DNA from: an uncultured Phycisphaeraceae bacterium
GTDB lineage: Bacteria; Planctomycetota; Phycisphaerae; Phycisphaerales; Phycisphaeraceae
Reading direction: 5' to 3'
Assembly: GCA_937988825.1 (NCBI GenBank)
Contig: CALKHT010000056.1
Location: forward strand, 1-64,000
Length of the DNA: 64,000 nt
The notes beneath the pieces were generated by a model. It saw nothing but the letters and a program-made list of their open reading frames with translations, did not search any database and had not been told where the DNA came from. The first letter of the stretch is position 1, and every line of letters starts with the position of its first letter. Below, piece after piece: positions 11,982 to 57,344 of the stretch. The translations under genes and the position numbers were made by a program.

Positions 11982-12003
11982 CGTGCAATGATGACGGTGA
12001 GCC

Positions 12004-12873
12004 ATGGGCTGGAATGATCGATCCTACTACTACCGTGAGAACCCCCGCATGGCGCTGGGCGGGGGGTTCAGCCGTTTCAGTGCGGTGACGTGGATCATCA
12101 TCATCAACGTGGTCGTGTTCCTGCTGGACAGCGTGCTTTGGAACTCGGCCCGTGGCAGTTCCTTCGCCCCTGTCCGGTGGGGCTATTTCAGCGTGGATAC
12201 CGCCATCCTCGGCGGACAGGTCTGGCGCTGGATCACCTTCCAGTTCCTGCACGCTGACATCTGGCACATCTTCTTCAACATGTTGGTGCTCTTTTTTTTC
12301 GGCCCGATGATCGAGGGCTACTGGGGCAGAACGCGATTTGTGATCTATTACCTGCTTTGCGGCATGGCGGGGGCGCTGCTGTTTGTCTTTTTCGTCATGG
12401 TGCCGGGGCTGCTGAATGTCAGCGCGGCTTCGCCGCTGGTGGGGGCCTCAGCGGGTGTATTTGGCGTGCTGGTCGGCTGTGCCATCGTCGCGCCGAATCA
12501 GCGGATCATGCTCCTCTTCCCGCCCATTCCCATGCAGATTCGCACACTGGTGCTGATCGTGCTGGGCTTCGCGGTGTTGGGCGTGCTGGTCGGCTCACTT
12601 AACGCGGGCGGTGACGCGGCCCACCTGGGCGGCGCGGCACTGGGGGCACTGCTCATGAAGAATCCGCGGTTGATCAGCTGGCTGAACATGCGCGGCGTGC
12701 GCTCGCGCTGGGAAGCCAGCCGCTGGCAGCGTCAGCAGCGACGCCTCGCCGCGGAAGAGGAGGAGATCGGCCGCATCCTGCAAAAGGTCAAGGACCACGG
12801 ACTGCACAGTCTCACCCGTCACGAAAAGCGGATGCTGCAGCGCGAAACAGACCGGCTGCGCAGCGCAGGGTGA
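12004..12873 (+). CDS. Rhomboid family intramembrane serine protease (tandem paralog)
   Basis: GASAGVFGVLVG and AHLGGAALG motifs; same architecture as the upstream paralog. Confidence 0.8.
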   Translation: MGWNDRSYYYRENPRMALGGGFSRFSAVTWIIIINVVVFLLDSVLWNSARGSSFAPVRWGYFSVDTAILGGQVWRWITFQFLHADIWHIFFNMLVLFFFGPMIEGYWGRTRFVIYYLLCGMAGALLFVFFVMVPGLLNVSAASPLVGASAGVFGVLVGCAIVAPNQRIMLLFPPIPMQIRTLVLIVLGFAVLGVLVGSLNAGGDAAHLGGAALGALLMKNPRLISWLNMRGVRSRWEASRWQRQQRRLAAEEEEIGRILQKVKDHGLHSLTRHEKRMLQRETDRLRSAG

Positions 12874-16007: not shown

Positions 16008-16150
16008 GAAGGAAAGGCGCAGGCAAATGAATTAGCTACCACACGGGCGACTACATCGCGCCTCTTCTGAATTACTCATTGCCAATTGCTTATTGCTTAC
16101 TGCTTATTCCATTCCCAACTGATTACTTATTACTGATTATTGATTACTCC

Positions 16151-16972
16151 TCATTCCGGCAGTCTCGGCTCACCCACCCGCGCCTCAGCATCCCGCCCGT
16201 CCGATTCCTCCGCCAGCCCGATCAGCGCATCGAACTCATCGGCGATCCGCGTTGACTGGGCATATCGAATGAACTCTGCCTCCTGCGCCCTGGTGTCGGT
16301 GCCAGCCAGTTCCTTGGACACGCGGGCCCTGGCCTTGAGTTCCTGTCGCATCTGACGCATGTCCGCCAGCTCGCGCGAGGTGCGGTCCCTGCTGATGCCC
16401 GCGAGCATGTCGTTGAGTTCCGCCTCTTCCTTGGCGGTGATCACCTCGGCGACGGCCTCGGCCTGCTCGCTGCGCAGCTTCTCGATCTCACGCAGCATCT
16501 GCGTCAACTGAATCTTGTGGCCGGCGATGGTGCTGTCCATCTCCTGCACCTCCGCCTCCAGTTCGCTGATGCGCGGTGTCTTTTCCTCGATCTTCGATCT
16601 GAAATCCTGATAGGCCAACATGCATTTGCGATAGTCCTCGCTGGCCTTGATCTGCTCCAGCGTGGCCCCATTGGCCTTCATCTGCTCGACCACCGTACGC
16701 GCTTTGGCCGCCGCCCCTTCCTTGAGCTGCTCCAGATGAGCGATCGCCTCCGATTCCGCCTTGATCTTGCTCATCTTCGCCTCGTGCTGCACGATCAGCC
16801 GGGCGATGGCGTCCTTGTACTGGCGAATCGACTCGGTCTTGCTGGCGATGATCTGATCGTACGTCGCCTTCACCACGTGCGGGCTGGTCGACAGCGCGCT
16901 GCGGGCAGCATCGATGCGGCCGGTGATCAGATAACCCAGGGCGCGAAAGTAACGGCCGACGGCTTTGAACAT
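16151..16972 (-). CDS. PspA/IM30 (Vipp1/LiaH)-family protein (ESCRT-III superfamily)
   Basis: 273 aa, coiled-coil throughout. N-terminal amphipathic MFKAVGRYFRAL resembles the PspA/Vipp1 alpha0 (MGLFDRLGRVVRANL), and heptad-rich E/A/K/Q repeats run the length of the protein. Family call from pattern only. Confidence 0.55.
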   Translation of the reverse strand: MFKAVGRYFRALGYLITGRIDAARSALSTSPHVVKATYDQIIASKTESIRQYKDAIARLIVQHEAKMSKIKAESEAIAHLEQLKEGAAAKARTVVEQMKANGATLEQIKASEDYRKCMLAYQDFRSKIEEKTPRISELEAEVQEMDSTIAGHKIQLTQMLREIEKLRSEQAEAVAEVITAKEEAELNDMLAGISRDRTSRELADMRQMRQELKARARVSKELAGTDTRAQEAEFIRYAQSTRIADEFDALIGLAEESDGRDAEARVGEPRLPE

Positions 16973-17001
16973 GCTTGGACTCCTTCGACAGCCCCCCCGC
17001 T

Positions 17002-24804: not shown

Positions 24805-24871
24805 TTGGCACCTCCGGGTTGATTCAAATTCAATACAGGTTGTTCATTCACTCATGCGTGGGCGACAGTGT

Positions 24872-25576
24872 TCACGACGATTGTCCGGGTTTTGGCATCG
24901 TGTCTGACGCCTGCGGGTGATCGTGCGACGCATCCTGCCAGAAGCCGCGAACCACATACACATTCGATTTCGCGTCCTGGCCGATCACCACCGCCTCATC
25001 GCCCTTGCTGAGCATTGTGCGATCGTCGCTCGTCCTCACGTTTAATCGCAGCGGCGCACCATTGGTCGGAATCTCCACCTGACCGAGCCGATGCGTAACG
25101 GTGAGCGACACCACGGTGCCACGCCGACCGATCAGGTCCAGTTTCTGTTCCGCCTCCTCCTGTTCCTTCATCCGAGCGAAAAGCGCCTTAAGCGGCAGCG
25201 TCAAAACCTTCGTCAGCAGCAGCGAGCCGATCACCATCGGCACCAGCGCCGCCAGTTGCAGCAGCCCACCCCACTTGCCAATCAACGGGTAACTGAGCAC
25301 CCCCACCATCCAGAACGCGAGGATGAACACCGACCAGAGCACCAGCACCGGCACCGTGCCTATGTGGAAGAACCGCAGGATCGAAGCGCCAATGCCCGCT
25401 TGCAGCATGCCGTGCGGCGTGTCCGTATCCAGATCCAGATCAGTGTCCAACCCCGTATCCGCGTCGAAGTCAAAGTCGAGGCTGTCGATACCCACCGCCC
25501 CCAGGATCACGACCAGCCAGTACAAGGTCGTCAACCCCAGCAATACGGACGCGATGAGATTGAGCATGCTGCCGGT
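24872..25576 (-). CDS. NfeD/YqiJ-like membrane protein with C-terminal OB-fold (flotillin partner)
   Basis: Multi-TM N-terminal half and C-terminal ...GTVVSLTVTHRLGQVEIPTNGAPLRLNVRTSDDRTMLSKGDEAVVIGQ... OB-fold-like segment, as in YqiJ/NfeD proteins encoded upstream of flotillins. The listed ORF extends to 25690; the ATG at 25576 (MLNLIASVLL) is the more plausible start. Confidence 0.6.
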   Translation of the reverse strand, partial: TGSMLNLIASVLLGLTTLYWLVVILGAVGIDSLDFDFDADTGLDTDLDLDTDTPHGMLQAGIGASILRFFHIGTVPVLVLWSVFILAFWMVGVLSYPLIGKWGGLLQLAALVPMVIGSLLLTKVLTLPLKALFARMKEQEEAEQKLDLIGRRGTVVSLTVTHRLGQVEIPTNGAPLRLNVRTSDDRTMLSKGDEAVVIGQDAKSNVYVVRGFWQDASHDHPQASDTMPKPGQSS

Positions 25577-25941
25577 ACACGCTTCGATGAACTCCGCCAC
25601 GGCTGCACCTCCTCGACCGCGGTCCACTATAGCGGCGGGCCCATTCCCGCAGATGAGAAAATGAAGGATCGCGATCCCACTGATGCGCAAAAAAATGAAT
25701 AGCTCAAATATGCCCCCGCAAAACGACTGGCGACGACATGGCCCGAGCTATCAGCGTAGCCGAAGTTGGAACGGGATGAAAGGGGTGATCGGGGATGGCG
25801 TGGAGGGAGGGAGATGAGGATTAACAGAACCGCCGCACTGAATTTCTCCCTCTCCCCGCGGGGGAAAGGGTCAGGGTGAAGGGGCGAAGGTCCACCGGCG
25901 CCAATCCCAGCGACGCTGTCCGAACACCGCTGCGCCGTACG

Positions 25942-27996
25942 CTACTTATGCCCCAGCACCGCCACGCCGTCCCACATGCGCGGCGGAGCATCGATGTACT
26001 GGCGGCAGCGGGCTGCCAGGGTCGCCGACGCCGGGTCGCCGTATCGTTTGACCAGCGCCTCAAACCGTGCCGCTGCCTCGGTGAAATGGCCCTCAAAGTA
26101 GATCGCCAGTGCCCGCTCGTATGCGTCGCGCAGGAGCAGCAACCGTTCATCAACCTCGCCCGACACACCCAGTAGCTCGAACACATCCGTCGGATGTGCC
26201 CTGCCTTTGACGACCACGCGGTCGAGCTGCCGCCAGTGGAACTGATCACCTGTGCTTTGCTGAACCGCATCGGACGCCAGCAGGTGCGTGCCATACACCT
26301 TGTTGAGCGATTCGAGGCGGCTGGTGAGATTGACGCCGTCGCCCATCGCAGTGTAGGTCAGATGATCAGCAGTGCCGACGTTTCCCACGACAACGCGGTC
26401 AGTGTGTAGACCGATGCGCTGCTCCAGCAGGATACGGCCATCGCGCTGGCGTTGCTCGTTGACCTCGCGCAGACGTCGCTGCGAATCGAGTGCCGCCCGA
26501 CATGCCGCAGCGGAATGGTCCGGCACCGGCAGCGGCGCGTTGAAGAAGGCGAAGATGCCATCGCCGACGAACTGCACCAGCGTACCCTTGTGCCGCGCCA
26601 GCGCATCGGCGGTTGTTTCAAAGTAGGCGGACAAATCCTCCACGACACGATCAGGTGTGCGCGACTCGCTGTGCCAGGTGAAGTTCGCCAGATCGCTGAA
26701 CATCATTGTGACCTCGCGCACCTGTCCGCCGAGCTTCGCTTCCTCACCGTTGGCGAGCAGCGACCTCACAAGCTCGGCCGGCACATAACGTGAGAAAGAC
26801 CTTAGTCCCGCCTTCATGCGTTCCGCCGCAGCAATAACGGTGGTTACCTCGGCAATGCGTGAGGGTTGCATCGCCTCGCCGGTCAAATCGAACCGGCCGA
26901 TGCGATCCAGCTCCTGTGACACCTCGCGCAGCGGTCGGGTCATGCGCTGCGTGAAGCGATAGCCCAGCACAATCGCGGTGAGCACCGCCAGTGCGCCAAT
27001 GCTCGACGCCCAGATGGCGTTGTAGCGGGCGACATGCAGGTACTCATCGGTCGGCACAAGCACGGCGAGCATGATCTGTCCGCCACCACCGAGACTGATG
27101 TGGTCGACCAGCGTGGCATACGCCTGCCCACCGAACGATAACACCCGGCGGTGCGTACCGTTATCTTCCATCACTGCGGCCCGCAGTTCTGCCGGGGTGG
27201 GCACGGTCACATCATCCTGCGGTGCGGTGCCGGCAATGAGCTGGCCTTGTGGCGAGAGAATGAAAATGCTGCCGGCTGAATCACCGCGCGTTTCTTCAAG
27301 AAAATGTTGCAGGGCCGTGACGGTCAGGTCGATCGTCAGCACACCGCGCAGCTCGCCATCCTTCGTGTAGATGGGCAGGCTTGTGGTGATCCCGCGTTCC
27401 TCGACGCCATAAAAGGTGTAAGGTTCGCTCCACGCGATGCCGCGGGCCCGCACCGCGTCCTGATACCAGGGACGATTGCGTGGATCGAAGTCTGGCGGCC
27501 CGGGGCCGTCGTAAACCAGTTGGCCATCACGCATGAGATAGTCGTACGCTTCGGGACCATCGTCCGCGACGGAGTAGTTGACGATGATCTCACCATCGGG
27601 CCGACGATTCGCCCCCACGAAAAGGCCATCCGATTCCTGTCCGTAGGAAACCCACTCCAGCCCCTCATCGGTGGCGATCACCCGCGCCAGTGCCATACCC
27701 ACCGCCTGCCAGTCCAGCGGCGGCGTCAGCAACAGTTCCTGATGGCCAGCCAGATAAAGCAGCACCGATTCAGCGCTGCGAATGCGGGCATCCACCTTGT
27801 GTCGCACCGATGTGGCTGTGCTGGCCAGATATCGATTGCTCAGATCCTCCACCGACTGGCGGGTGGATATGTACGCCACCGTCGCAACAACCAGCACCGT
27901 ACCGAGCAGTGTGCTCAGCAGGAGCATCAGCACCGCCGTGCGCAGACGAAACGTCATGCGCTCGCGCGATTGAAACTTGTTCCGACGTCGCGGCAT
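25942..27996 (-). CDS. Class III adenylate/guanylate cyclase with periplasmic Cache-like sensor and TM/HAMP region
   Basis: N-terminal TM, a large periplasmic domain, a second TM, then the CHD catalytic core (TMMFSDLANFT...LVQFVGDGIFAFFNAP...GLHTDRVVVGNVGT...YTAMGDGVNLTSRLE), followed by a C-terminal helical region. Confidence 0.8.
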   Translation of the reverse strand: MPRRRNKFQSRERMTFRLRTAVLMLLLSTLLGTVLVVATVAYISTRQSVEDLSNRYLASTATSVRHKVDARIRSAESVLLYLAGHQELLLTPPLDWQAVGMALARVIATDEGLEWVSYGQESDGLFVGANRRPDGEIIVNYSVADDGPEAYDYLMRDGQLVYDGPGPPDFDPRNRPWYQDAVRARGIAWSEPYTFYGVEERGITTSLPIYTKDGELRGVLTIDLTVTALQHFLEETRGDSAGSIFILSPQGQLIAGTAPQDDVTVPTPAELRAAVMEDNGTHRRVLSFGGQAYATLVDHISLGGGGQIMLAVLVPTDEYLHVARYNAIWASSIGALAVLTAIVLGYRFTQRMTRPLREVSQELDRIGRFDLTGEAMQPSRIAEVTTVIAAAERMKAGLRSFSRYVPAELVRSLLANGEEAKLGGQVREVTMMFSDLANFTWHSESRTPDRVVEDLSAYFETTADALARHKGTLVQFVGDGIFAFFNAPLPVPDHSAAACRAALDSQRRLREVNEQRQRDGRILLEQRIGLHTDRVVVGNVGTADHLTYTAMGDGVNLTSRLESLNKVYGTHLLASDAVQQSTGDQFHWRQLDRVVVKGRAHPTDVFELLGVSGEVDERLLLLRDAYERALAIYFEGHFTEAAARFEALVKRYGDPASATLAARCRQYIDAPPRMWDGVAVLGHK

Positions 27997-28229
27997 TCTC
28001 CCTGAATCCTGCCCGTCCCGGCGTCAGTTGAAGCGCTCAAACGCGCTCACAATCACAAAACAACCTGAGTATCGGATCCGCCAGGTCGCCAAGAGCCGCC
28101 CTTTCCGTCTTTGTTCCTCCGGCGACGGTCGCCAGCTCAGCTTCCGACAGTAATCACTCATGGTCATGATTTTCCATAGGACCGCGCCCCGCGTAACCGT
28201 CGATGGGCCGCGCGGCGCATGATGGTGCA

Positions 28230-28523
28230 TCAGAACCGCGTGATGAATCGCAGCGAGTTTTCCGCTTCGGAAGATTCAACGATGCCCTGAAGCAGATGGC
28301 CCACCAGACCGCCCGCTACGCCGGCGAGCTGTTCCTCACTCAGTTCGCCGCCGGACGAGCCGGACATGCCGGCCTGCAGCTCCTTCAGCGTCAGGGCAAT
28401 GCCCGCGCGGTTCGCAATCGCAACCACATCCTGCGGCGACTGTGCCTGCGCCAGCGCAGCCCGAAACGTCTCATCTTCCTTCGCTTTTCGCGTCAGTTCC
28501 TTCAGTGAGGCGGAAATCCCCAT
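28230..28523 (-). CDS. Nif11-like leader peptide precursor (RiPP/bacteriocin-type, double-glycine leader)
   Basis: MGISASLKELTRKAKEDETFRAALAQAQSPQDVVAIANRAGIALTLKELQAG... is a Nif11-type leader ending ELSEEQLAGVAGG. Predicted core is LVGHLLQGIVESSEAENSLRFITRF (no Cys). Confidence 0.75.
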   Translation of the reverse strand: MGISASLKELTRKAKEDETFRAALAQAQSPQDVVAIANRAGIALTLKELQAGMSGSSGGELSEEQLAGVAGGLVGHLLQGIVESSEAENSLRFITRF

Positions 28524-28540
28524 GATCAGGTTCCTTCAGA

Positions 28541-28756
28541 TCAACGTTTGAAGAACAGAGGGTCCGCGTAGATCGCATCGGCGTAGATCGCGTCGGACTG
28601 ATGCTGGGTAGGCTGCTGGATACCGCCAGCAGCGTTCTCCAGTTCCGCATCGGTCAGCTCTTCGCGAATCGGCCCCTGCTGAAGATTTGGCCTCGATTGT
28701 TCTGACGGAGAAAGGTTGCCATGGTCACGCTTCATGGAAGTTCTCCAATCGTTCAA
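28541..28756 (-). CDS. Double-glycine leader peptide precursor
   Basis: Leader ends EELTDAELENAAGG; core is IQQPTQHQSDAIYADAIYADPLFFKR. Likely start is the internal ATG (MKRDHG, about 28735), preceded by GGAGAA. Confidence 0.65.
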   Translation of the reverse strand: MNDWRTSMKRDHGNLSPSEQSRPNLQQGPIREELTDAELENAAGGIQQPTQHQSDAIYADAIYADPLFFKR

Positions 28757-28789
28757 GATGAGTGCAAGCGGTTCAGATGACCGATCGGG

Positions 28790-28972
28790 TCAGATCTCCC
28801 GTTTACCCTCGACCGACAGCGAGCCGGATGTCGTCCGGGAATCAGCCTGCTCAAAGAAGGGCAGATAACCACCCGCCACCTCTTTCAGTTGCTCGTCGGT
28901 CAGTTCCTTCGAGGTGTCTCGCGTTGGCTGCTTCTCGGGTTTGTCGGTTTTCACTTTCGGTACTCCTTTCAT
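28790..28972 (-). CDS. Double-glycine leader peptide precursor
   Basis: Leader ends ELTDEQLKEVAGG; core is YLPFFEQADSRTTSGSLSVEGKREI. AAGGAG precedes an in-frame GTG (alternative start MKTDKPEK). Confidence 0.65.
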   Translation of the reverse strand: MKGVPKVKTDKPEKQPTRDTSKELTDEQLKEVAGGYLPFFEQADSRTTSGSLSVEGKREI

Positions 28973-29227
28973 TTATACATCGCGGCGTGACCATGTTGGC
29001 ACGGTGAGCATCGGAGATGCCTGCGAGCGGCTTGACCGAAGGTGGGCGTGAAACGTGCCCTGCCGCGGGGACACAACCTTTTGCACCGATTTGGCAAGCT
29101 GCGCGATTCCGATTGCGCCGATCAGGCAATCTGTAACGGTTGGTTATGCCGCGCTGACCACAAGCCGATACGTGCCTAGAGCAACGACTTCCACGAGGAG
29201 GTCCAGATCAGGAGGCGCAGGTCATCA

Positions 29228-30922
29228 GTGCATTGCGATTATCGGTCCATTCGCGGGTCACGATGTTCGACCACGCTGTCACTGGGACTGCTGGCGATCA
29301 GCGCGCTGTCACCGGGGTGTACCGGCCCGCTGGATCATGCGCTCGATGAGGCAGTGCGTCGCCGACTGGGGCCCATCGAGCGCATCGCGCTGGAGGAGCA
29401 CAGCGCCGAACCGACCATCACCGCGGCGCAGGCAGCCGAGGCTGGCGCGGAGCCGATAACCGATCCACAACCGCCCGATACCGTGCGTGAGATCACCATT
29501 GAAGAGGTTCGCGCTACGGCCCTGCGATACAACCTGGGCCTGCAGGTGGAGCGGCTCGATCCGCTCATCGCGGCGGAGATCCTGACGGAGGAAGAAGCCC
29601 GCTTCGAGGCAGTCTTCTTCGGCAACACGCGCTACGCTGATACCGACCCGCGCATCAATCGCGAAGTACCTTCGCTCGGTTCGCCCGGCGTTGAGCAGTG
29701 GGCCAGCGAAGTGGGCATCGAGGTGCCGCTTCGCACCGGCGGAACCGCGACCGTCAGCACCAGCCACTTCGCCCAGGGGGTGAAGCTGCCGGGCGTCGCG
29801 GATGAACATGAGATCGCTGCTCGCTTTTCGATCAGTCAGCCGCTGCTTCGCAATGCGGGCTATGCGGTAAATCAGGCGCCAATTCGTGTGGCGGCGGCGC
29901 AACATTATCAGGCGTCGGCGCGCACACGGCTGGCCGCCATTCGCGTCATGACAGAGGCGGAGCGCGCCTACTGGCGATTTGCCTTCACCGCTCGGCAGGT
30001 GGAGGTTCAGCGCCAGCTTTACGAAAACGGGCTGGAGCAGCTTCGTCGAGCGCAACGGCTGGCGGAGGAAGGTGTGGTGGCTGGCATCGAGGCTGAACGC
30101 GCCCGGGCCGGCCTGTCGCGCCATGTCGATGCGGTCATCGTTGCGGAAACGCAGCGGCGACAGGCCGAACGCCAGCTTAAACGCATCATGAATCATCCCG
30201 ATCTGCCGGTGGATGGTCCGACGACATTGATTCCCGTCAGCGATCCCAACCCGATCTACCTCGCGCTGGATGCGGAGAACTTCACGCGTCACGCGATGCA
30301 GCACCGCATGGAAATGCTCGACCTGGAACTGCAACTGGCGATCGACGCGATTCAGGTTGACCTGGCACGCAACCGCACGCTGCCGCTGGTCGCGCTGCAG
30401 TTCGATTACTCCTTTCGCGGCACGCATAACTCTGCCGGTCGGGCGTTCAACGCAATGCTGCACGACGACATAAGTGACTGGCTCGTGGGAGCCGAGGTGC
30501 GCATTCCGCTGGGTAACGAAGCAGCGCGGGCGGCGTTGCGCCGCGCACTATTGCAACGGCTGCGAACGGCTGGCAGCAAGGCAGACCAGGTCGAACAGAT
30601 CAAGCAGGACGTTCACGATGCGCTGGACCAGTTGCAGCAGAACTGGCGTCGCATCCTCGCTGCACGGCGGGAAGTCGTGCTGCAGGGCCGCATTTATGAA
30701 GCGGAGCAACGTCAGTTCCAGGCGGGCACCGTCACGATGACAGAGGTGCTCGATGCCGCCCAGTTCCTTGCGGACGCCCAGATTCGCGAGATCGATGCAC
30801 TGACGGATTACGAGATCGCAAAGGTAGAGTTCGCCTACGCCACCGGCACGGTGCTGGGTCACGGACGGGTGCACTGGGAAGGCGATCAAACATACGAACG
30901 GCTTCTTCCATCGGAACGCTGA
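29228..30922 (+). CDS. TolC/NodT-family outer-membrane efflux lipoprotein
   Basis: Lipobox LLAISALSPGC followed by the two-repeat coiled-coil/beta-barrel TolC architecture; 564 aa. Confidence 0.75.
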   Translation: MHCDYRSIRGSRCSTTLSLGLLAISALSPGCTGPLDHALDEAVRRRLGPIERIALEEHSAEPTITAAQAAEAGAEPITDPQPPDTVREITIEEVRATALRYNLGLQVERLDPLIAAEILTEEEARFEAVFFGNTRYADTDPRINREVPSLGSPGVEQWASEVGIEVPLRTGGTATVSTSHFAQGVKLPGVADEHEIAARFSISQPLLRNAGYAVNQAPIRVAAAQHYQASARTRLAAIRVMTEAERAYWRFAFTARQVEVQRQLYENGLEQLRRAQRLAEEGVVAGIEAERARAGLSRHVDAVIVAETQRRQAERQLKRIMNHPDLPVDGPTTLIPVSDPNPIYLALDAENFTRHAMQHRMEMLDLELQLAIDAIQVDLARNRTLPLVALQFDYSFRGTHNSAGRAFNAMLHDDISDWLVGAEVRIPLGNEAARAALRRALLQRLRTAGSKADQVEQIKQDVHDALDQLQQNWRRILAARREVVLQGRIYEAEQRQFQAGTVTMTEVLDAAQFLADAQIREIDALTDYEIAKVEFAYATGTVLGHGRVHWEGDQTYERLLPSER

Positions 30923-30924: not shown

Positions 30925-31464
30925 ATGCGCAAGGTGCTTTATATCCTGGCGGACCTTTCCGACAGCGACGTGGACTGGCTTGCCCAGGTGGGAACTCACC
31001 GGCAGGTGGTGGACGGCGAAGCAATCATCCGACAGGGCGAACCCGCCACGCACCTTTTCATCGTGATCGACGGTCGACTGGCTGTGCAGGCGGCGGACGG
31101 CTCCACCGTCGCCATCCTCGAACAGGGGGAAGTGGTGGGCGAGCTGTCGTTCCTTGATTCGCGCCCCCCCACGGCGACCGTCGTGGCACGCGGGCCCGCA
31201 CTGGTGCTGGCGATCGATCGTCAGGTGCTGTCACGCAAGCTTGCCTCCGACCATTCATTCGCGGCCGGGTTCTATCGCGCGCTGGGTGTCTTTCTGGCCA
31301 GTCGTCTGCGCCAGACGATGGCGAGCATGGCTGCGCCGAAAGGACGCATGCTCGACGACGATGTGGAAGACCCGGATGAGATCGACCCCGCCCTGCTCGA
31401 TTCGATGGCGCTGGCGGGCAAGCGATTCGAAATGCTGCTGAACCGGTTCCGCAGCGCAGGGTAA
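30925..31464 (+). CDS. Cyclic-nucleotide-binding domain protein
   Basis: GEVVGELSFLDSRPPTATVVARGPALVLAIDRQVL is a CAP-family cNMP-binding signature; 179 aa; start one codon after the TolC-like stop. Confidence 0.75.
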   Translation: MRKVLYILADLSDSDVDWLAQVGTHRQVVDGEAIIRQGEPATHLFIVIDGRLAVQAADGSTVAILEQGEVVGELSFLDSRPPTATVVARGPALVLAIDRQVLSRKLASDHSFAAGFYRALGVFLASRLRQTMASMAAPKGRMLDDDVEDPDEIDPALLDSMALAGKRFEMLLNRFRSAG

Positions 31465-31470: not shown

Positions 31471-32886
31471 ATGTATAGTCAGAAGGCGCTGGAACATCAC
31501 AATACGCCCGAGCAGCTTGATCAGTTGCTGCGCATCACCGGACGGCGAAGCTGGCTGCCGCTGTCGGTGCTGGCGTTCGCGCTGGCGGGCGTGCTGGTGT
31601 GGTCGATCGTCGGGCAGATTCCGCTGACAGTGGATGGTTACGGCGTCCTGGTGCGGCCGCGACGCATGGTGTCATTTCAGGCGCCGGGCACGGGACAGAT
31701 TCTGGAGCTGCGCGTAAATGCCGGCGATCGCGTGGAAGCTGGGCAGGTCATCGCTGTGCTGCATCAGCCGGAGATACGCCAGCAGTTGGAACAGGCAGAA
31801 GCGCGACTGGCGGAACTGCGCATGCGCCACGACCGGCTGAACCCGCTGCTGCTTCAACGACGCGATCTGCGTCAGCGCGCCATCGAGGAACAGCGCCGGC
31901 TTCTCAAGGAACAGATCGCCTCGGCCACACGCATGGCGGAACTGCAGCGCGAAAAGGCAGACAGCTACATCGCCCAGCAGCAGGACAACATCCAGCGGCT
32001 GCTGGAAACCACACGCAGCCTGGGGCATGCACTTGAGGAACGTTACAAGACCTATCAGAACCTGCGAGTCGAGGGCCTGGTTGATGAAAACGCGCTGCTC
32101 GGAGCGAGACAGCAACTGATCGACAACCGCGTGCGGCTGGCGGACCTGGAACTCAACGCACATGAAGTGGAACTTCGCCGGCTCGAAGCCGAACGCGAAC
32201 ATCGCGACCAGCTTCACCGTGTCGAAGAGTTGCAGGCCCGATTGCACGAACTGGAAGCTGAAGCCTCCGAGGAGATGCGTGCGTTCGAGGAACGCACCAG
32301 CGATGAAGAACTGGCGATCCAGCAACTCGAACAGGAGATCGCACGCTATCGGCAGCAACTCGAAACGCGCGGCAGGCTCGTCAGTCAGTACACCGGCCGG
32401 GTCATCGAAATCACCGGCACCGTCGGGCAGTACGTACGCGAGGGCGAGCGGCTCGGCGCGATCGAGGCGGATGATCCGGAAGGCAATCTGATGGCGGTCG
32501 CGTACTTCGATGTGGGTCATGGCAAACTGTTGCGGCCGGACATGGAAATCCGCATCACACCCACAACCGTACAGCGCGAGCGGCACGGCTCGATCATCGG
32601 CCGCATCACTGAGGTGTCCAGCTTCCCCGTTACCACTGATGCAGTAACCAACGTGGTGGGCAACCATCAGATCGCCCGCGAACTGACCGGCGATCGCAGT
32701 TGCATTCAGGCTTTTTCGATCATGCTGCCCGATCCTCAGGCGCCAAGCGGTTACCGCTGGACATCGGGGCACGGGCCGGATGTCCGCATCACGCCGGGCA
32801 CCACCGTGAGCATTCGTGCGACGACGGAACATCGTCGGCCGATCAGCTTCGTCATCCCCCTGCTGAGGCAATGGAGTGGACTCTGA
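31471..32886 (+). CDS. HlyD-family membrane fusion/secretion protein (NHLM-type bacteriocin secretion protein)
   Basis: N-terminal TM (WLPLSVLAFALAGVLVWSIV), long coiled coil, C-terminal beta domain; 471 aa. Confidence 0.75.
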   Translation: MYSQKALEHHNTPEQLDQLLRITGRRSWLPLSVLAFALAGVLVWSIVGQIPLTVDGYGVLVRPRRMVSFQAPGTGQILELRVNAGDRVEAGQVIAVLHQPEIRQQLEQAEARLAELRMRHDRLNPLLLQRRDLRQRAIEEQRRLLKEQIASATRMAELQREKADSYIAQQQDNIQRLLETTRSLGHALEERYKTYQNLRVEGLVDENALLGARQQLIDNRVRLADLELNAHEVELRRLEAEREHRDQLHRVEELQARLHELEAEASEEMRAFEERTSDEELAIQQLEQEIARYRQQLETRGRLVSQYTGRVIEITGTVGQYVREGERLGAIEADDPEGNLMAVAYFDVGHGKLLRPDMEIRITPTTVQRERHGSIIGRITEVSSFPVTTDAVTNVVGNHQIARELTGDRSCIQAFSIMLPDPQAPSGYRWTSGHGPDVRITPGTTVSIRATTEHRRPISFVIPLLRQWSGL

Positions 32887-35080
32887 CCGCCAGACAACTT
32901 CTCGCTTCAGCCGGGTGAAAACACCCACTGTGCTCCAATTGGAGGCGGTGGAGTGCGGCGCAGCTGCGCTGGCGATGGTGCTGGCGTACCACGGGCGCAT
33001 CGTGCCGCTGGTCACGCTTCGGCGGGACTGCGGCGTGTCACGCGATGGCAGCAAGGCGGCGAACATCCTGCGGGCCGCGCGCAAGCACGGGATGCAGGCC
33101 AAGGGTTTCTCCAAATCGGTTGAGGCGCTGCGCGCGATCAAGCCGCCGACCATTCTTTTCTGGGAGTTCAACCACTTCGTCGTCTGCGAAGGTTTCGGAA
33201 AGGACAAGGTCTACATCAACGACCCTGCAAGCGGACACCGCACCGTAAGTCTGGAGGAGTTCGAACGCTCCTATACGGGCGTGGTGCTGGTGATGGAGCC
33301 GGGGCCGGAGTTTCAGAAGGGTGGCCGACGCCCCAGCGTGATCGGCGCGATTCGCCGTCGGCTGACGGGCAGCATGTCCGCCATCGTGTACTGCATTCTC
33401 GCAGGGTTACTGCTGGTGATTCCCGGGCTGGCAATTCCCGCGTTGACGCAGGTGTTTATCGATCGTGTCGTCATCGAAGCGAGGGCGGACTGGCTGCGCC
33501 CGCTGATCGTCGCGCTCATCGTGGGCATTCTGCTGCAGGTTGGGATCAAGACCCTGCAGTTGCAGATTCTGCGGCGGCTGCGTGTGGCACTGTCGGTGGG
33601 GATGTCCGCCCGATTCATGCGGCATTTGCTCGATCTGCCTGCATCATTCTACGCTCAGCGGTTTCCCGGTGAGATCGCCAACCGATCACAGATCAACGAG
33701 ACAATCGCAGACACCCTGTCCGGTCGACTCACACAGACGGTGATTGACGTCACGATGATCGTCTTTTACGCCGCGGTCATGTTCTATTACGACGCGGTGC
33801 TGACGGGCATTGGCGTGACATTCGCAGCCATCAACTTCATCGTGCTGCAGAAGATGTCGAGCCTGCGCGTCGAATCAAACATGGTGCTGCTGCACAATCA
33901 GGGTGCCGCTCAGGGCGTCGCCATGGCGGGTCTGCAGAGCATCGAAACCATCAAGGCGGGAGGCGATGAAAACGGCTTCTTCGCGCGATGGGCGGGTTAT
34001 CAGGCCAAGGCTGCCAACGCACGGCAGGCACTGGAGCTGGCGAACCGACCGCTTACCGTGCTACCCACGTTGCTCAGCAGTCTCGCGATGGCGGCGATCC
34101 TAAGCATCGGCGCGTTTCGCATCATCGAAGGACATCTGAGCATCGGAATGCTCGTCGCGTTCCAGATGCTCATGACCAGCTTCATGACGCCCATGACCAA
34201 TCTGATGGGGTTCGGTCAGACATTGCAGGAGATGCGCGCGGACCTGGATCGCCTGGACGATGTGCTGGACCATGAAACCGTCACCGCCCGGAAAAACCTC
34301 ACCGCGCAGGCGTCTGCCGATGACGCCACGGCCATCCGCCTCAGAGGCCGTATCGAACTGCGCAATGTCACGTTCGGCTACAGTCCGTTGGAGGAACCCT
34401 TCATTCGCGATTTCAATCTGACCATCGAACCGGGTGAGCATGTTGCGCTGGTCGGCGGTTCCGGATCGGGGAAAACAACCATCGGACGACTCATCAGCGG
34501 CGAATACCAGCCATGGGAAGGCGAAATCCTTTTCGACGGCAAACCGATGCATGAAATCGACCCCGCCGTCATGATCAACTCGTTCGCCACGGTCGATCAG
34601 GAACTGTTCCTCTTCGAAGGCACCGTGCGCGACAATCTCACATTGTGGGATCCGACCGTACCCGATGCCAATCTGCACGCGGCCTGCGAGGATGCGGCGA
34701 TTCACGACACCATTCTCGCGCTGCCCGGCGGATACGACGGACAGCTCGCCGAAGGCGGCACGAATCTCAGCGGCGGTCAGCGCCAACGGCTGGAAATCGC
34801 CCGCGCGCTGGTGAACAACCCCTCGATTCTTCTGCTCGATGAGGCGACCAGTGCCCTTGATAACGAAACGGAACGCTTTGTCGTGGATCGCCTGCGCATG
34901 CGAGGCTGCTCGTGCATCGTCATTGCACATCGTCTGAGCACCATCCGCCATTGCAGCCGCATTGTCGTGCTGGAAAAGGGCCGAATTGTCGAGCAGGGCA
35001 CGCACGATGAACTGATCGCGGCCGACGGCCGGTATGCGCAACTGATCCGTTGCGGCGAAGAGGAGGGAGTGCTGAGCTGA
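32876..35080 (+). CDS. Peptidase-containing ABC transporter (C39 peptidase domain, TMD and NBD; bacteriocin/double-glycine peptide exporter)
   Basis: N-terminal C39 motif QLEAVECGAAALAMVLAYHG, six-helix TMD, Walker A GGSGSGKTT, ABC signature LSGGQRQRL; 734 aa. Confidence 0.85.
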   Translation: MDSDRQTTSRFSRVKTPTVLQLEAVECGAAALAMVLAYHGRIVPLVTLRRDCGVSRDGSKAANILRAARKHGMQAKGFSKSVEALRAIKPPTILFWEFNHFVVCEGFGKDKVYINDPASGHRTVSLEEFERSYTGVVLVMEPGPEFQKGGRRPSVIGAIRRRLTGSMSAIVYCILAGLLLVIPGLAIPALTQVFIDRVVIEARADWLRPLIVALIVGILLQVGIKTLQLQILRRLRVALSVGMSARFMRHLLDLPASFYAQRFPGEIANRSQINETIADTLSGRLTQTVIDVTMIVFYAAVMFYYDAVLTGIGVTFAAINFIVLQKMSSLRVESNMVLLHNQGAAQGVAMAGLQSIETIKAGGDENGFFARWAGYQAKAANARQALELANRPLTVLPTLLSSLAMAAILSIGAFRIIEGHLSIGMLVAFQMLMTSFMTPMTNLMGFGQTLQEMRADLDRLDDVLDHETVTARKNLTAQASADDATAIRLRGRIELRNVTFGYSPLEEPFIRDFNLTIEPGEHVALVGGSGSGKTTIGRLISGEYQPWEGEILFDGKPMHEIDPAVMINSFATVDQELFLFEGTVRDNLTLWDPTVPDANLHAACEDAAIHDTILALPGGYDGQLAEGGTNLSGGQRQRLEIARALVNNPSILLLDEATSALDNETERFVVDRLRMRGCSCIVIAHRLSTIRHCSRIVVLEKGRIVEQGTHDELIAADGRYAQLIRCGEEEGVLS

Positions 35081-37977
35081 TGATCGCCCGGCAGGACATC
35101 GCACTCTCTGCGCCTCAGCCGCTGATGCGACAGATTGTTCGACAGCGGTCGATGCTGCTGAACGAGCCGGACACGGTGTGGATCGTTGAATCGGGCACCG
35201 CGCTTGTTTTTGCCACGATGGTCGAGGGTGATCGGCCCGTCGGTTCCCGGCGAAACCTCTTTCGCGTCAGTGATGGCGACCTGATCGCCTCGATCGCGAC
35301 AGCCCAGCTCGCACTACGGACATTGATGCTCTTCGCCATCAGCGATCTACGGCTGCGCGAGATGTCGCGGGCGGAACTCGCCGAGCGCTGCCAAAGTGAT
35401 ACGAAGATCCGTGAGGCGGTCGATCACTGGCTCTGCCGTCTTGCCGAACTGCTTGAACAGAATGCTCCGCCCGCCGGGGCGGAACGGCTCGATGAAAACA
35501 CGCCGCGCATCGAACTGGAAGCGGGTCGGGCGCTGCGTGTTGCGGGTGATGACTGGCGCTGGCTGGTGATCGAGTGCGGGGCGGTGCGAATCAACGGCGT
35601 CACCAAAATGACCGTGGCGGCAAACGAAACGCCAGTACCGATCGGTGCTGGATTCTGGCTCCAAACCACGCAGTCTACCACGTTGCGCCCGCTCACCGAT
35701 GAGGAGCGTTTCGCCACGCACAGCCTCACCGCAAGCCTGTCGTGGATGCACACACTTGTGCAACGAAGACTGGCTGCGCTTGATGAAGAAGACGCCCAGC
35801 GTGAGCGCATGCGCATCACTTCGCGGCAGTTCGTGCAGCGAGGACTGGTCACGGCCGCGATGGACGAGGTGCGTTCGATTCTTCACCCCACAACATCGCT
35901 GCCACACCGTGAAACGCCGCTGCTCAGCGCGATGGCGGTGATCGGCCAGACGCTGGGTGTCGAAGCACAGCCCCCCGCTGCTTCGGAAGACCTCAGCCTC
36001 GTCAAGGACCCGATCGACGCGATCGCGCGCGCCATGCGCATCCGTCATCGGCGTGTCACGCTGACCGGCGTGTGGTGGAAGGACGACTGCGGCCCGCTGC
36101 TGACGACCGACAGGGAAACACAGAACCCCATCGCGCTTATCAAGCCGACCGTCGGGCCATACCTGGCGGTTGATCCGACCGCGAGCACCACTCAGCCCGT
36201 CGATGCCACGATTGCCGCGCGCCTCGTCTCACAGGCAACGATGTTCTACCGTCCACTGCCCGCATCGGTGACACGGCCGTGGCAACTGCTGTCACTGGCG
36301 CGACAGCGGCAGGGGCTGGACATCGCATTCGTGATCGCACTGTCACTGGTGACGACACTGCTGGGTTTCCTCACACCCATCGCGACCGGCCGACTGATGG
36401 ACCTTGCGATTCCCGATGCCAACGCCCGGCTGGTCGTGGAACTGGGACTGGGGCTTGCCGCGGCGGCTGGGGGCATCGCATTACTACAGATTGCCCAGGC
36501 AGTGCTGGCTGTGCGAATCGCCGTGCGTGCGGAAACCACGCTCGAAGCGGGCGTGTGGGATCGTCTGCTCAGGCTTCGCCCGCGCTTCTTCAGCCGATTC
36601 TCCACCGGCGATCTGCTCATGCGTGCCTCCGCCATCACGCAGATCAGCCGCGAGATCAACGGCGTCACCATGCGCTCGCTGCTCACCAGTCTCATGGGCC
36701 TGCTTAACCTCGCGCTACTCTTTTATTACAGCGCGAAGCTGGCAATGATCGCGATGGTGCTCGTCATCATCGTCGCGCTGGTCACCGGTATCTGCGGCGG
36801 CCTCGTCGGCAGCTACGCCCGACAGCTCATGCAACTGCGTGGCCGAATCTTCGGCATGGTCGTGCAGATTGTCTGCGGCGTCAGCAAGCTCCGTGTCGCC
36901 CAGGCGCAGGAACGCGCCTTTGCCGTCTGGATGCGGCGTTATGCCGAGCAGGTTCGGCTGATCTTCCGCGCTCATCGCGCCCAGGATGTACTGGCGGTGT
37001 TCAACCACGTGCTGCCCACGATCAGCTCGGTCGCGCTGTTCTGGTTCGCCGCGTCCATGCTGCTCGTGGAGGAGGGCAGCACAGTCCAGTCGCTGACGAT
37101 CGGCGCGTTTCTGGCGTTCAATACAGCTATGGGCGTCTTCATCGGCAGCGCGACGGAACTGAGCCTCACGCTGGTGGGACTGGTCGATACGCTCATCAAC
37201 AGCCGGCGTCTCGCCCCGATCCTCGCCGCGGAGCCAGAGGTGCGCCACGAAGCTGCCGACCCTGGCCGACTCACCGGCCATATCAGCCTCTCGCGTGTCC
37301 ATTTCCGCTACCACCCCGACGGCCCGAAGATTCTCGACGGCATCGACCTGGTTGCCGAACCGGGCCAGTTCATCGCACTCACCGGCCCATCCGGCTGCGG
37401 CAAAAGCACCATCCTGCGACTGCTGCTGGGCTTTGAAACACCCGAATCCGGCGTCATCGCCTACGATGGACAGGACCTGGCGGGCCTGGACGTCACGGCA
37501 GTACGGCGGCAGATCGGCGTCGTCCTGCAGTCCAGCCGAATCAACACCGGCTCGATTTTCGATAACATCAGTGGTGGGCTGGCCGTCTCCATGGAGGAGG
37601 CCTGGGAAGCCGCCGAGGACGCCGGACTGGCCGACGACATCCGCGACATGCCCATGGGAATGCACACCATGATCAGCGAGGGCGGCGGCAACATCTCCGG
37701 CGGTCAGCGCCAGCGCCTGTTCATCGCCCGTGCGCTGGTCAAGCAGCCACGCATCCTGCTACTCGACGAAGCGACCAGTGCGCTGGATAATCGTACCCAG
37801 CAGATCGTCAGCCGCAGTCTGGCGCGACGCAACGTGACCCGGATCGTCATCGCCCATCGTCTGAGCACCATTCGCGATGCCGATCGAATCTACATCCTCG
37901 AACACGGACGCATTGTCGATCAGGGAACCTACGATCAACTGAAGCGAACACACGAACTGTTCGTCATGGCAGCCTGA
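35050..37977 (+). CDS. ABC transporter ATP-binding/permease protein with a large (about 300 aa) N-terminal non-peptidase domain (second NHLM-type exporter component)
   Basis: TMD followed by Walker A GPSGCGKST and signature ISGGQRQRL; 975 aa. No C39 Cys motif at the N-terminus. Confidence 0.8.
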   Translation: MRRRGGSAELMIARQDIALSAPQPLMRQIVRQRSMLLNEPDTVWIVESGTALVFATMVEGDRPVGSRRNLFRVSDGDLIASIATAQLALRTLMLFAISDLRLREMSRAELAERCQSDTKIREAVDHWLCRLAELLEQNAPPAGAERLDENTPRIELEAGRALRVAGDDWRWLVIECGAVRINGVTKMTVAANETPVPIGAGFWLQTTQSTTLRPLTDEERFATHSLTASLSWMHTLVQRRLAALDEEDAQRERMRITSRQFVQRGLVTAAMDEVRSILHPTTSLPHRETPLLSAMAVIGQTLGVEAQPPAASEDLSLVKDPIDAIARAMRIRHRRVTLTGVWWKDDCGPLLTTDRETQNPIALIKPTVGPYLAVDPTASTTQPVDATIAARLVSQATMFYRPLPASVTRPWQLLSLARQRQGLDIAFVIALSLVTTLLGFLTPIATGRLMDLAIPDANARLVVELGLGLAAAAGGIALLQIAQAVLAVRIAVRAETTLEAGVWDRLLRLRPRFFSRFSTGDLLMRASAITQISREINGVTMRSLLTSLMGLLNLALLFYYSAKLAMIAMVLVIIVALVTGICGGLVGSYARQLMQLRGRIFGMVVQIVCGVSKLRVAQAQERAFAVWMRRYAEQVRLIFRAHRAQDVLAVFNHVLPTISSVALFWFAASMLLVEEGSTVQSLTIGAFLAFNTAMGVFIGSATELSLTLVGLVDTLINSRRLAPILAAEPEVRHEAADPGRLTGHISLSRVHFRYHPDGPKILDGIDLVAEPGQFIALTGPSGCGKSTILRLLLGFETPESGVIAYDGQDLAGLDVTAVRRQIGVVLQSSRINTGSIFDNISGGLAVSMEEAWEAAEDAGLADDIRDMPMGMHTMISEGGGNISGGQRQRLFIARALVKQPRILLLDEATSALDNRTQQIVSRSLARRNVTRIVIAHRLSTIRDADRIYILEHGRIVDQGTYDQLKRTHELFVMAA

Positions 37978-38020: not shown

Positions 38021-38680
38021 ATGGCTGAAGGCCTCACCAACCCGACGATCGTCCGTGACGCCGACCTGGAGCGCGCCATCGCCGCCCTTTACGACGCCCG
38101 GCTCCCCTACCACAACTTCGAGCACGCGCTGGCCAACCTGGAAACGTGCCAAAAGCTCATTGACCACTGCATTCAGGTCGGCCGCGATGTGGACGCAACC
38201 ACCATCTACCTCGCCACCCTGCTGCACGATGCCGGCTTCCAGGATGACGAGCAGGCACTGGGCCAGCCTTCCAAGGAAGCCTGGGCCGCCGAACTGGCCG
38301 AACGGCTGCTGCGCAACTTCAACGTGCCCGAAGCAACCATCCAAGCGGTGCGGCAGGCGATCCTCGCCACAGCCTGCGGTCAGCCGTGCCCCACGCTGGA
38401 AGCCTCCATCGTGAAAGCAGCCGACCTGGCGGGACTGGCAGCCGACTACCCCATCTTCGTACGCAACGCTCACCGCCTGTGGCGCGAACAAATGCTGTTG
38501 ACCGGCCAGTCCATCACCTGGGACCAGTGGCGTCAACGCGCCCTGAGCGTGCTGGACCTATACATCGAGGACCTGGCCGCCTGTGCCGCACGACTGCCCG
38601 CCCCCGCTCTTGCGAACGCGGCCATCACCGCCCGCGCCAACTGCGATCGCCTGCGCGAGGAACCCGCCCCGACCGCGTGA
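38021..38680 (+). CDS. HD-domain phosphohydrolase
   Basis: YHNFEHALANLE...LLHDAGF is an H...HD...D metal-binding pattern; 219 aa. Confidence 0.6.
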   Translation: MAEGLTNPTIVRDADLERAIAALYDARLPYHNFEHALANLETCQKLIDHCIQVGRDVDATTIYLATLLHDAGFQDDEQALGQPSKEAWAAELAERLLRNFNVPEATIQAVRQAILATACGQPCPTLEASIVKAADLAGLAADYPIFVRNAHRLWREQMLLTGQSITWDQWRQRALSVLDLYIEDLAACAARLPAPALANAAITARANCDRLREEPAPTA

Positions 38681-48889: not shown

Positions 48890-48907
48890 CCCGTGGGAGG
48901 TCAGGCC

Positions 48908-57323: not shown

Positions 57324-57344
57324 GAGCGGTCACTACTTTCCAAT

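Follow-up and report, generated by a model that had tools for sequence, protein, structure and literature searches.

The NHLP/Nif11 peptide families and a three-gene transport cassette (TIGR03794/03796/03797) were described by Haft, Basu and Mitchell in 2010, who reported that the NHLP/Nif11 leader is tied by co-occurrence more closely to the transport cassette than to any tailoring enzyme (PMC2887384). The "group V" clusters of Wang, Fewer and Sivonen (2011) hold about three precursors of mixed type each and, in Prochlorococcus, rely on a stand-alone LanM that acts in trans (PMC3140520). In Nostoc PCC 7120, HetC is a peptidase-containing ABC transporter (PCAT) with an N-terminal cyclic-nucleotide-binding (CNB) domain that is needed for activity, and the export of signalling peptides has been proposed for it (PMC10986499). 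Thousands of double-glycine (GG)-leader peptides encoded near NHLP-type pumps are annotated as precursors of RiPPs (peptides made on ribosomes and then modified after translation), and many of them have no visible tailoring enzyme or known function. Here we describe a locus of this kind in a 64-kb stretch of DNA (contig CALKHT010000056.1, positions 1 to 64,000; hereafter the window), where three small precursor genes, pepA, pepB and pepC, stand between a sensor nucleotide cyclase gene and a divergent export operon.

The locus belongs to a known kind, the NHLP/Nif11 export cassette of group V. It apparently also represents an undescribed sub-type, in which cyclase and phosphodiesterase genes accompany the pump in place of tailoring enzymes; a literature search on TIGR03896, on "bacteriocin-type transport-associated" proteins and on cyclase-linked PCATs found nothing relevant among the papers covered. 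On balance we lean, by a little more than even chances, towards nucleotide-gated export of little-modified peptides by a tripartite exporter. The precursor genes are three tandem small open reading frames (ORFs) on the minus strand, in the order pepC, pepB, pepA:

28790..28972, minus strand: pepC, short-leader double-glycine precursor (ORF, leader motif)
28541..28735, minus strand (longest ORF 28541-28756): pepB, short-leader double-glycine precursor (ORF, leader motif)
28230..28523, minus strand: pepA, Nif11-type precursor of 97 aa (PF07862, TIGR03798)

All three ORFs are real. The pepA product exceeds the curated cut-offs of both Pfam Nif11 (PF07862; 35.8 bits, cut-off 23.8) and the NCBIfam model for RiPP precursors of the Nif11-like leader peptide family (TIGR03798; 49.2 bits, cut-off 32.3). 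Together with the ORFs and their common leader motif, these scores bear out an earlier reading of the DNA letters by themselves (the sequence-only reading), which had proposed three tandem double-glycine precursors, one of them Nif11-type. Neither pepB nor pepC falls above cut-off in any Pfam or NCBIfam family, TIGR03798 and PF07862 included; pepC gives weak, leader-level matches below cut-offs to the NCBIfam class IIb bacteriocin and plantaricin models. The likely start of pepC is a GTG at 28954, which yields 54 aa and follows an AAGGAG by 8-9 nt, while that of pepB is an ATG at 28735, which yields 64 aa and follows a GGAG by 9 nt. The ribosome-binding site of pepA is AAGGA. Gene callers applied to about 60 public metagenome contigs that carry the locus independently chose the same pepA-pepC products, the 64-aa form of pepB being called on 62 public contigs and the 54-aa call of pepC occurring in four near-identical variants. 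Strain variants of the locus are at most 3 nt apart over 1.3 kb, and the differences among those of pepA are confined to the leader.

The three leaders all end in the pattern EL[ST][DE]x[EQ]Lxx[VA]AGG, which has three matches in the six-frame translation of the 64 kb, each at one of the pep genes, and none in 200 shuffles. A slightly relaxed form has four matches in the window, all within 28037-28972 on the minus strand, and likewise none in 200 shuffles. The motif fits the published cleavage-site logo, in which positions 1, 4 and 6 are acidic, 2 and 7 are Leu, 3 is Ser/Thr, 10 is Val/Leu and 12-13 are Gly-Gly (PMC2887384). The consensus first proposed, E-L-[ST]-[DE]-E-x-L-x-x-[VA]-AGG, was correct in its double-glycine type but not at position 5, where pepB has Ala and not Glu.

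We regard it as very improbable that pepB and pepC are chance ORFs and that pepA is the sole real gene. Such a reading could appeal to the fact that neither belongs to any Pfam family, and to a search of 5.8 billion clusters for homologues sharing 5-residue words with pepB, which recovered only its own sequence. It is opposed by the 12-13-residue leader motif, which is confined to this region of the window and absent from shuffles, by correctly spaced Shine-Dalgarno sites before both genes, and by core lengths that match that of pepA. Moreover, the start of the pepC core is found again in P0138, a precursor from a sister organism, and similar short-leader peptides occupy the same position in sister loci.

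The pepA leader comprises 72 aa, ends in ELSEEQLAGVAGG and is followed by the core LVGHLLQGIVESSEAENSLRFITRF (25 aa). In pepB the leader end EELTDAELENAAGG precedes the core IQQPTQHQSDAIYADAIYADPLFFKR (26 aa), and in pepC the leader end KELTDEQLKEVAGG precedes the core YLPFFEQADSRTTSGSLSVEGKREI (25 aa). None of the cores contains Cys, and their sequences and lengths are as originally given. Their description as Ser/Thr-poor has to be withdrawn, since Ser and Thr make up 24% of the pepC core, 16% of that of pepA and 8% of that of pepB. The P-[LF]-F-F motif said to be shared by two cores is present in pepB (PLFF) but not in pepC, which reads LPFFE. The DAIYA duplication noticed in the pepB core was recovered computationally as a 15-bp, 2.1-copy tandem repeat at 28566-28596; spliceotide-type modification of its IYA repeats was considered and ruled out, there being no XYG motif and no splicease. 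Each core has a net charge of -1 and an isoelectric point (pI) of 4.9-5.5, and Arg/Lys/Asp/Glu residues are present in all three. The pepB and pepC cores are hydrophilic (grand average of hydropathy of -0.5 and -0.6 for the two), and an amphipathic stretch occurs only in the pepA core, at its N-terminus, with a maximum hydrophobic moment (muH) of 0.78 over 11 residues.

The exporter genes are transcribed away from the precursors:

28973..29227, no strand: divergent intergenic region of 255 bp between the opposed pepC and exporter genes, with presumed promoters
29228..30922, plus strand: TolC-like outer-membrane exit duct, first gene of the operon (PF02321 OEP, 6.6e-32)
30925..31464, plus strand: single-CNB protein of 179 aa, "bacteriocin-type transport-associated protein" family (PF00027, 4.8e-20)
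31471..32886, plus strand: HlyD-type periplasmic adaptor, NHLP bacteriocin system (TIGR03794, 327.5 bits, cut-off 156.2)
32876..35080, plus strand: ABC1, C39 peptidase/permease/ATPase, a PCAT (TIGR03796, 1078.6 bits, cut-off 853.3; PF03412, 1e-34)
35080..37977, plus strand: ABC2, permease/ATPase without a peptidase domain (TIGR03797, 879.7 bits, cut-off 709.4)

This operon is tight from TolC to ABC2, with gaps or overlaps of no more than 6 nt, and HlyD, ABC1 and ABC2, contiguous at 31471-37977, all exceed equivalog cut-offs. The C39 catalytic residues of ABC1 are intact (Cys in VECGAAAL, His in FNHFVV and Asp in INDPA). The peptides had been proposed as double-glycine substrates of the adjoining C39 transporter, and the leader motif, the full members of the NHLP export families and these intact residues sustain that assignment. 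The TolC-like protein also matches TIGR01844, under its cut-off. In the intergenic region at 28973-29227 there is no sigma-70 consensus match and no Rfam family.

Two components of the operon may read a nucleotide. ABC2, which starts at the ATG at 35080 and has 965 aa, as called on public contigs, is extended at its N-terminus by about 280 aa, in which there is a cNMP_binding match below threshold (17.6 bits, E=0.0039, residues 39-116) and no PDB sequence match. The stand-alone CNB protein scores 143.3 bits against TIGR03896 (cut-off 161.05) and covers only profile positions 139-317 of 317; it carries one CNB domain, so it is not the full two-CNB form of that family. Its best PDB matches are the CNB domains of PKG and PKA (E ~1e-18). 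A large single-domain sister group of 628 homologue clusters (E<=1e-5) surrounds it, many of them labelled "bacteriocin-type transport-associated protein". Its phosphate-binding cassette, GELSFLDSRPPTAT, departs from the canonical GE...PR[ST]A[ST]: the family motif is F[LV]DSRPP[STNA]A[ST], of 120 members about 110 have RPP[STNA]A[ST], and across the family the Glu and the [ST]A[ST] are kept while an Arg lies two residues before the Pro (SRPPTAT).

Genes for a cyclase and for an HD-domain protein flank the precursors and the operon:

25942..27996, minus strand: membrane sensor nucleotide cyclase (Pfam dCache_1, 3.6e-18; Guanylate_cyc, 1.5e-18)
38021..38680, plus strand: HD-domain protein, 43 nt after ABC2 (PF01966 HD, 1.2e-4)

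The cyclase is laid out as a transmembrane segment, a periplasmic dCache_1/PDC domain, a second transmembrane segment and a class III adenylate/guanylate cyclase domain. It is co-oriented with the peptide genes and lies 233 nt downstream of pepA. The HD protein scores 18.6 bits against PDEase_I, under the cut-off of 24.8, and its sole PDB sequence matches are weak ones to PDE10A catalytic domains (E ~0.25-0.7). Its single-sequence AlphaFold model is poor (predicted local distance difference test, pLDDT, 59.5), and Foldseek returned designed helical bundles only.

The fourth match of the relaxed leader pattern falls in the spacer of 233 bp between pepA and the cyclase gene:

28153-28037, minus strand: relic fourth precursor cassette, LLSEAELATVAGG then TKTERAALGDLADPILRLFCDCERV (relaxed leader motif)

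Here the leader LSEAELATVAGG is joined to a 25-aa core, TKTERAALGDLADPILRLFCDCERV, which holds two Cys in a C-D-C pair; core length is 25-26 aa in all four cassettes. Because the frame is interrupted by a TGA two codons upstream and the candidate start, MTMSD, belongs to a different frame, we take the cassette to be a frameshifted relic. It has no gene call on public contigs. A search with the leader consensus for additional precursors had been suggested for the whole genome; within the window it gave this one addition, which the sequence-only reading had missed. The relic suggests that cores turn over by birth and death and that an ancestor contained Cys. The RNA structure of the spacer is not unusual (z=0.2), and no Rfam family and no convincing terminator or sigma-70 promoter was found in it.

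For tailoring enzymes, essentially every plausible ORF of the window was compared with Pfam and NCBIfam; the known sequence of this genome is about 65.7 kb (the longest public contig), of which the window is 64 kb. No lanthionine synthetase, YcaO, ATP-grasp or similar RiPP tailoring enzyme was found. The single radical-SAM/SPASM gene of the window is 27 kb from the peptides:

55632-57323, minus strand: spiro-SPASM-like radical-SAM/SPASM protein (108 bits, cut-off 250)

We rejected it as a maturase on the grounds that it is spiro-SPASM-like, has an NTP-transferase-like region fused to it, adjoins Maf/PseD and is separated from the peptides by housekeeping genes. The absence of tailoring enzymes, first claimed for the vicinity of the peptides, accordingly extends across all 64 kb; the absence of radical-SAM enzymes, claimed alongside it, holds near the peptides but not for the window as a whole. 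The three intact cores have no Cys and no LanM/LanB/LanKC, YcaO or radical-SAM-SPASM maturase lies nearby, so that the locus lacks the hallmarks of lanthipeptides, thiazole/oxazole-modified microcins (TOMMs) and sactipeptides; the lack of Cys by itself excludes thioether, thiazole and sactionine chemistry in these cores.

The radical-SAM protein carries a fused N-terminal NTP-transferase-like region, and we read it as a protein of sugar or flagellin chemistry, not of peptide maturation. It sits beside a Maf/PseD-like flagellin-modification protein (55632-59285, minus strand), with FlgM nearby (45756-46034, plus strand). This looks like a flagellin-glycosylation islet, which would imply a flagellated, non-cyanobacterial host.

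Neighbourhoods were fetched for members of the CNB-protein family on long contigs, and 170 loci were fetched in all. A cyclase domain is present in 3 of the 15 CNB-bearing loci and in none of the 155 others (Fisher p=6e-4, in a small, biased and non-independent sample). In one of these loci, L088, the order is GG peptide, CNB, HlyD, ABC1, ABC2, a metallo-beta-lactamase (MBL) and an FHA-cyclase, the MBL protein scoring 51.5 bits against PDEase_II, the class II cAMP-phosphodiesterase family (cut-off 23.7). A second, L173, from a Planctomycetes metagenome-assembled genome, has a GAF-cyclase, a 48-aa peptide with a GA leader (...LKKVSGA followed by GVTQTPT...), the cassette and two Metallophos proteins. 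The third, L174, has an FHA-GAF-cyclase, a 68-aa peptide, the cassette and an MBL hydrolase. The three are unrelated to each other, their peptides are Cys-free and hydrophilic with GG or GA leaders, and no tailoring gene was found within about 10 kb of any of them. Two short contigs, L105 and L087, have tandem GG peptides at the same position, one to four in number, which are Cys-free and rich in Lys/Gly/Pro.

Other CNB-bearing loci have no cyclase and are tailored: L167 (radical SAM, NHLP, LanM, GNAT and cupin), L170 (cupin and arginase), L175 (Trp halogenase), L176 (LanB and B12-radical SAM), L177 (JmjC and glycosyltransferase) and L107 (LanM and ATP-grasp). Two more, L171 and L172, have neither a cyclase nor a classical tailoring enzyme. 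The CNB protein of the window is up to 60% identical to members of the tailored set and 47-53% identical to those of the cyclase-linked set. Because it is closer to some tailored loci, the cyclase link is a recurring arrangement and not the mark of a single clade. Taken together, the window and the sister loci point to a sub-type that may be set apart, with a pump tied to nucleotide second-messenger enzymes and not to tailoring enzymes, and with Cys-free cargo.

Further genes recur around the cassettes. DUF7005, a small FHA protein and an OEP-SPOR outer-membrane protein appear right after ABC2 in L167, L170, L172, L175 and L176, a trio that is absent from the window and the cyclase-linked loci. 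Upstream recurrences include Ser/Thr kinases (L088, L172) and a PP2C phosphatase (L032).

An exhaustive HMMER search with pepA over 1.84 billion representatives gave 52 matches, and 24 of the 47 nearest Nif11 relatives (short matches with a recognisable GG site) have Cys-free cores. Unmodified export had been called unusual for Nif11/NHLP systems; with about half of the nearest relatives Cys-free, and tailoring-free cassettes already published (PMC3140520), that view cannot be kept. The start of the pepA core, LVGHLLQGIV, resembles that of P0143 (LVGDFIKGWVT), and the start of the pepC core, YLPFFEQ, resembles that of P0138 (FLPYFER). P0138 was found in the sample that also gave L168, the closest relative of the locus (~70% nt identity over TolC-CNB-HlyD), and lies directly downstream of a cyclase orthologue with 72% aa identity (L178 1-1436, Logan SRR17161169). 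The adjacency of cyclase and precursor is kept in L178 but the gene order differs, the Nif11 precursor there following the cyclase. In P0138 a Nif11 domain of the pepA type is joined to a leader end like that of pepB (87% nt identity over 38 nt) and a core start like that of pepC; since this protein mixes the leader end of one cassette with the core start of another, leaders and cores appear to have been reassorted between cassettes.

Searches for pepA homologues returned strain variants and one chimera only, no core-level family could be built from the peptide searches, and an HlyD probe of metagenomes found no relatives. ABC1 probes of genomes and metagenomes reached 63% identity at best, mostly in unrelated cluster types, and the cores of 160 ABC1-anchored loci resemble pepA-pepC in the leader only. 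Two sequences, P0002 (on an 806-bp ENA contig) and P0137 (180 aa), are identical to pepA over their first 51-60 residues and then diverge. In one, the tail is a helical segment resembling WXG100 that closes with ...SELAGG where the contig stops; in the other it is secretin-like and of low complexity. Either the two are paralogues in which an identical Nif11 leader has been used again, or they arose as chimeras in assembly.

In the model that we favour, pepA, pepB and pepC would be substrates of the divergent pump formed by the TolC-like duct, HlyD, the C39-bearing ABC1 and ABC2. By analogy with known PCATs, the C39 domain would cut after Gly-Gly, and cleavage would be coupled to one-step export via HlyD and TolC. 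The products outside the cell would be three Cys-free, slightly acidic peptides of 25-26 aa, with expected unmodified monoisotopic masses of 2814.50, 3035.51 and 2816.40 Da. Judging from the gene neighbourhoods, these peptides would carry little or no tailoring, the Cache-sensor cyclase next door would make a nucleotide second messenger that gates export, that messenger would be sensed by the separate CNB protein and by ABC2 through its CNB-like N-terminus, and the HD protein would remove it.

Several observations weigh against this model. The comparison that ties cyclases to the pump is based on four cyclase-linked loci. In the CNB protein, a Pro aligns with the canonical cyclic-phosphate-binding Arg of PKA, PKG and CRP, so that its ligand may be something other than cAMP or cGMP, and the CNB domain of HetC, the only PCAT-linked one studied, bound ppGpp/GTP and not cAMP in vitro (PMC10986499). 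The HD protein is a weak candidate for a cyclic-nucleotide phosphodiesterase. As to the cargo, the Cys residues of the relic core hint at a thioether past, the Ser/Thr content of the pepC core (24%) leaves it open to dehydration, glycosylation or ester linkage, and the closest long-contig relatives of the CNB protein (54-60% identity: L167, L170, L175, L176 and L177) lie in tailoring-rich clusters, which indicates that the same pump type serves modified peptides too. These last points favour the view that the peptides are ordinary RiPP precursors, which the local cassette only cleaves and exports and on which tailoring enzymes encoded elsewhere act in trans; an epimerase, hydroxylase, arginase, acyltransferase, dehydratase or glycosyltransferase could do so via the Nif11 or short leaders. 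We think this rather unlikely, while granting it real weight. The stand-alone LanM that works with group V cassettes is a precedent, as is the ProcM/prochlorosin system for Nif11 precursors; pepC is rich in Ser/Thr, Arg/Lys/Asp/Glu are available in every core, and P0002 and P0137, with the identical pepA leader on other C-termini, suggest paralogues elsewhere. Yet no candidate enzyme lies within 64 kb, the cores rule out thioether, thiazole and sactionine products and contain no XYG splice motif, the cyclase-linked sister loci are likewise without tailoring genes, and two of the three precursors have short leaders without a Nif11 domain on which an enzyme could dock. We consider it probable that the peptides leave the cell chemically unmodified or nearly so. 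The original proposal of unmodified linear peptides is therefore strengthened by the lack of tailoring genes in the window and in cyclase-linked loci but tempered by the tailored clusters that the same pump serves.

Export of little-modified peptides would also accommodate antibacterial products of the class II microcin kind, exported as microcin V is by CvaAB-TolC. The export architecture and the GG leader match, the pepA core has its amphipathic stretch, and pepC has its sub-cut-off, leader-level matches to class IIb bacteriocin and plantaricin models. We nevertheless consider this improbable: the cores are negatively charged with an acidic pI, two are hydrophilic, all are short (25-26 aa), and no small gene for a membrane immunity protein adjoins the peptides, the spacer between pepA and the cyclase holding only the relic. 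The bacteriocin-like role offered by the sequence-only reading is for these reasons not favoured. Its other suggestion, signalling peptides, is compatible with the core chemistry but is an inference only; we infer that this chemistry fits a signal or another non-lytic role better than a pore-forming bacteriocin. A more specific form of signalling, in which the exported cores bind the dCache domain, raise the cyclic nucleotide and feed back on export via the CNB proteins, seems doubtful to us. The sensor cyclase is co-oriented with and immediately downstream of the peptide genes, this adjacency survives rearrangement in the nearest relative, and the cores are nearer in size and chemistry to peptide pheromones than to toxins. 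The sensors of the other cyclase-linked loci, however, are cytoplasmic GAF and FHA domains and not extracellular ones, so that the general link would be from cyclase to pump and not from peptide to cyclase, and no ligand can be inferred for the dCache domain.

An extended form of nucleotide-gated export would join all of these parts into a self-contained, second-messenger-gated circuit for peptide communication in a Gram-negative bacterium, with a Cache cyclase that possibly senses the exported peptides, CNB readers, a PCAT/HlyD/TolC pump that sends out 25-aa signal peptides in unmodified form, and reset by the HD protein. It would recur across phyla with non-orthologous replacement of the sensor (Cache, GAF, FHA) and of the phosphodiesterase (HD, MBL, metallophosphatase). 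We put it forward as a long shot. Should it be true, it would constitute a cyclic-nucleotide counterpart of Gram-positive peptide quorum sensing. The simpler proposal of nucleotide-gated export, if correct, would make the cyclase input and the CNB ligand a handle for activating silent peptide export, predicts exact product masses and offers a testable candidate for Gram-negative peptide signalling. For genome mining, the relatives of pepA counsel caution, in that a Nif11 leader need not mean a lanthipeptide.

The remaining genes of the window are mostly housekeeping or unrelated. Among them are rpoB/C, NrdR, a ProRS-type synthetase, rhomboids, GSDH, RtcA, FtsY, FolP, TrpD, Der, DeoC and FlgM, together with giant AAA/DUF3686 ATPases and an NfeD/flotillin-like pair. 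That pair lies directly downstream of the cyclase gene (22663-25690, minus strand) and consists of a membrane protein of 272 aa (YqiJ_N, NfeD-like) and a protein of 713 aa that matches flotillin faintly; being on the same strand, it may be co-transcribed with the cyclase. At 500 nt past the HD gene (39179-41311, plus strand) is a 710-aa protein with no Pfam family, a C-terminal PEP-CTERM signal and an unusually high GC content at second codon positions (0.55). The ATPase region (14160-22554, minus strand) encodes an 1850-aa DUF3686/DUF7902/AAA_5 ATPase, then a family-less protein of 273 aa and an AAA ATPase of 615 aa. Two neighbouring rhomboid-protease paralogues of 289 aa each are found at 11112-12873 (plus strand). 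At 48893-49186, ORFs overlap on both strands with odd composition (second-position GC 0.16-0.19) and no family match.

Of the described systems, that of Haft and colleagues (PMC2887384) shares with this locus the TIGR03798 membership of pepA, the leader logo and the three transport genes beside the precursors, and the cores of 25-26 aa equal the reported average of ~26. The locus differs in that two of its three precursors are short-leader forms that lack both a Nif11 and an NHLP domain, the neighbourhood has no TOMM or LanM machinery, the TolC gene is within the operon, and a sensor cyclase and an HD protein flank it. Its architecture is that of group V (PMC3140520): HlyD, a short C39-ABC, a stand-alone CAP_ED protein, about three GG precursors of mixed type, a peptidase-less ABC with an N-terminal CAP_ED-like region (here the weak match of ABC2) and no tailoring enzyme inside the cluster. 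What sets it apart from group V are a host that would be non-cyanobacterial, to judge from the flagellar genes FlgM and Maf that the window contains, a CAP_ED protein with one domain and not two, and cyclase and phosphodiesterase-like neighbours, which are undescribed for that group.

Prochlorosins (ProcA/ProcM of Prochlorococcus MIT9313) have the same Nif11-type leaders, hypervariable short cores and cassette type, and their tailoring enzyme is unlinked to many precursors. Their cores, however, have Cys and Ser/Thr for lanthionine rings, whereas the present cores are Cys-free and no LanM is seen. Class II microcins such as microcin V (CvaA/CvaB/TolC) are likewise GG-leader peptides of Gram-negative bacteria; they undergo no enzymatic tailoring, and a PCAT, an HlyD-family adaptor and TolC cut and export them in a single step. 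Microcins exceed the present cores in length and come with an immunity gene. The present locus has the GG leader and the PCAT, membrane-fusion protein and TolC but no adjacent immunity gene or other immunity candidate; its peptides are acidic, mostly hydrophilic and 25-26 aa long, and in its pump a second ABC subunit is joined by CNB regulators.

HetC provides a parallel for the regulatory side, as a peptidase-ABC exporter with a cyclic-nucleotide-binding-type domain. Its CNB domain forms part of the PCAT polypeptide itself, and it has no known substrate gene (PMC10986499), whereas here the CNB protein is separate, the substrates are adjacent and a cyclase is next door. The GG-leader pheromones of Gram-positive bacteria (ComC/ComAB, BlpC and plantaricin A) resemble this system in their short GG-leader peptides, which stay unmodified, in cleavage and export by a C39-ABC transporter and in the adjacent sensor. 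Their sensors are histidine kinases with response regulators, in place of which the locus described here has a Cache-cyclase and CNB readers, in a Gram-negative envelope served by a TolC duct.

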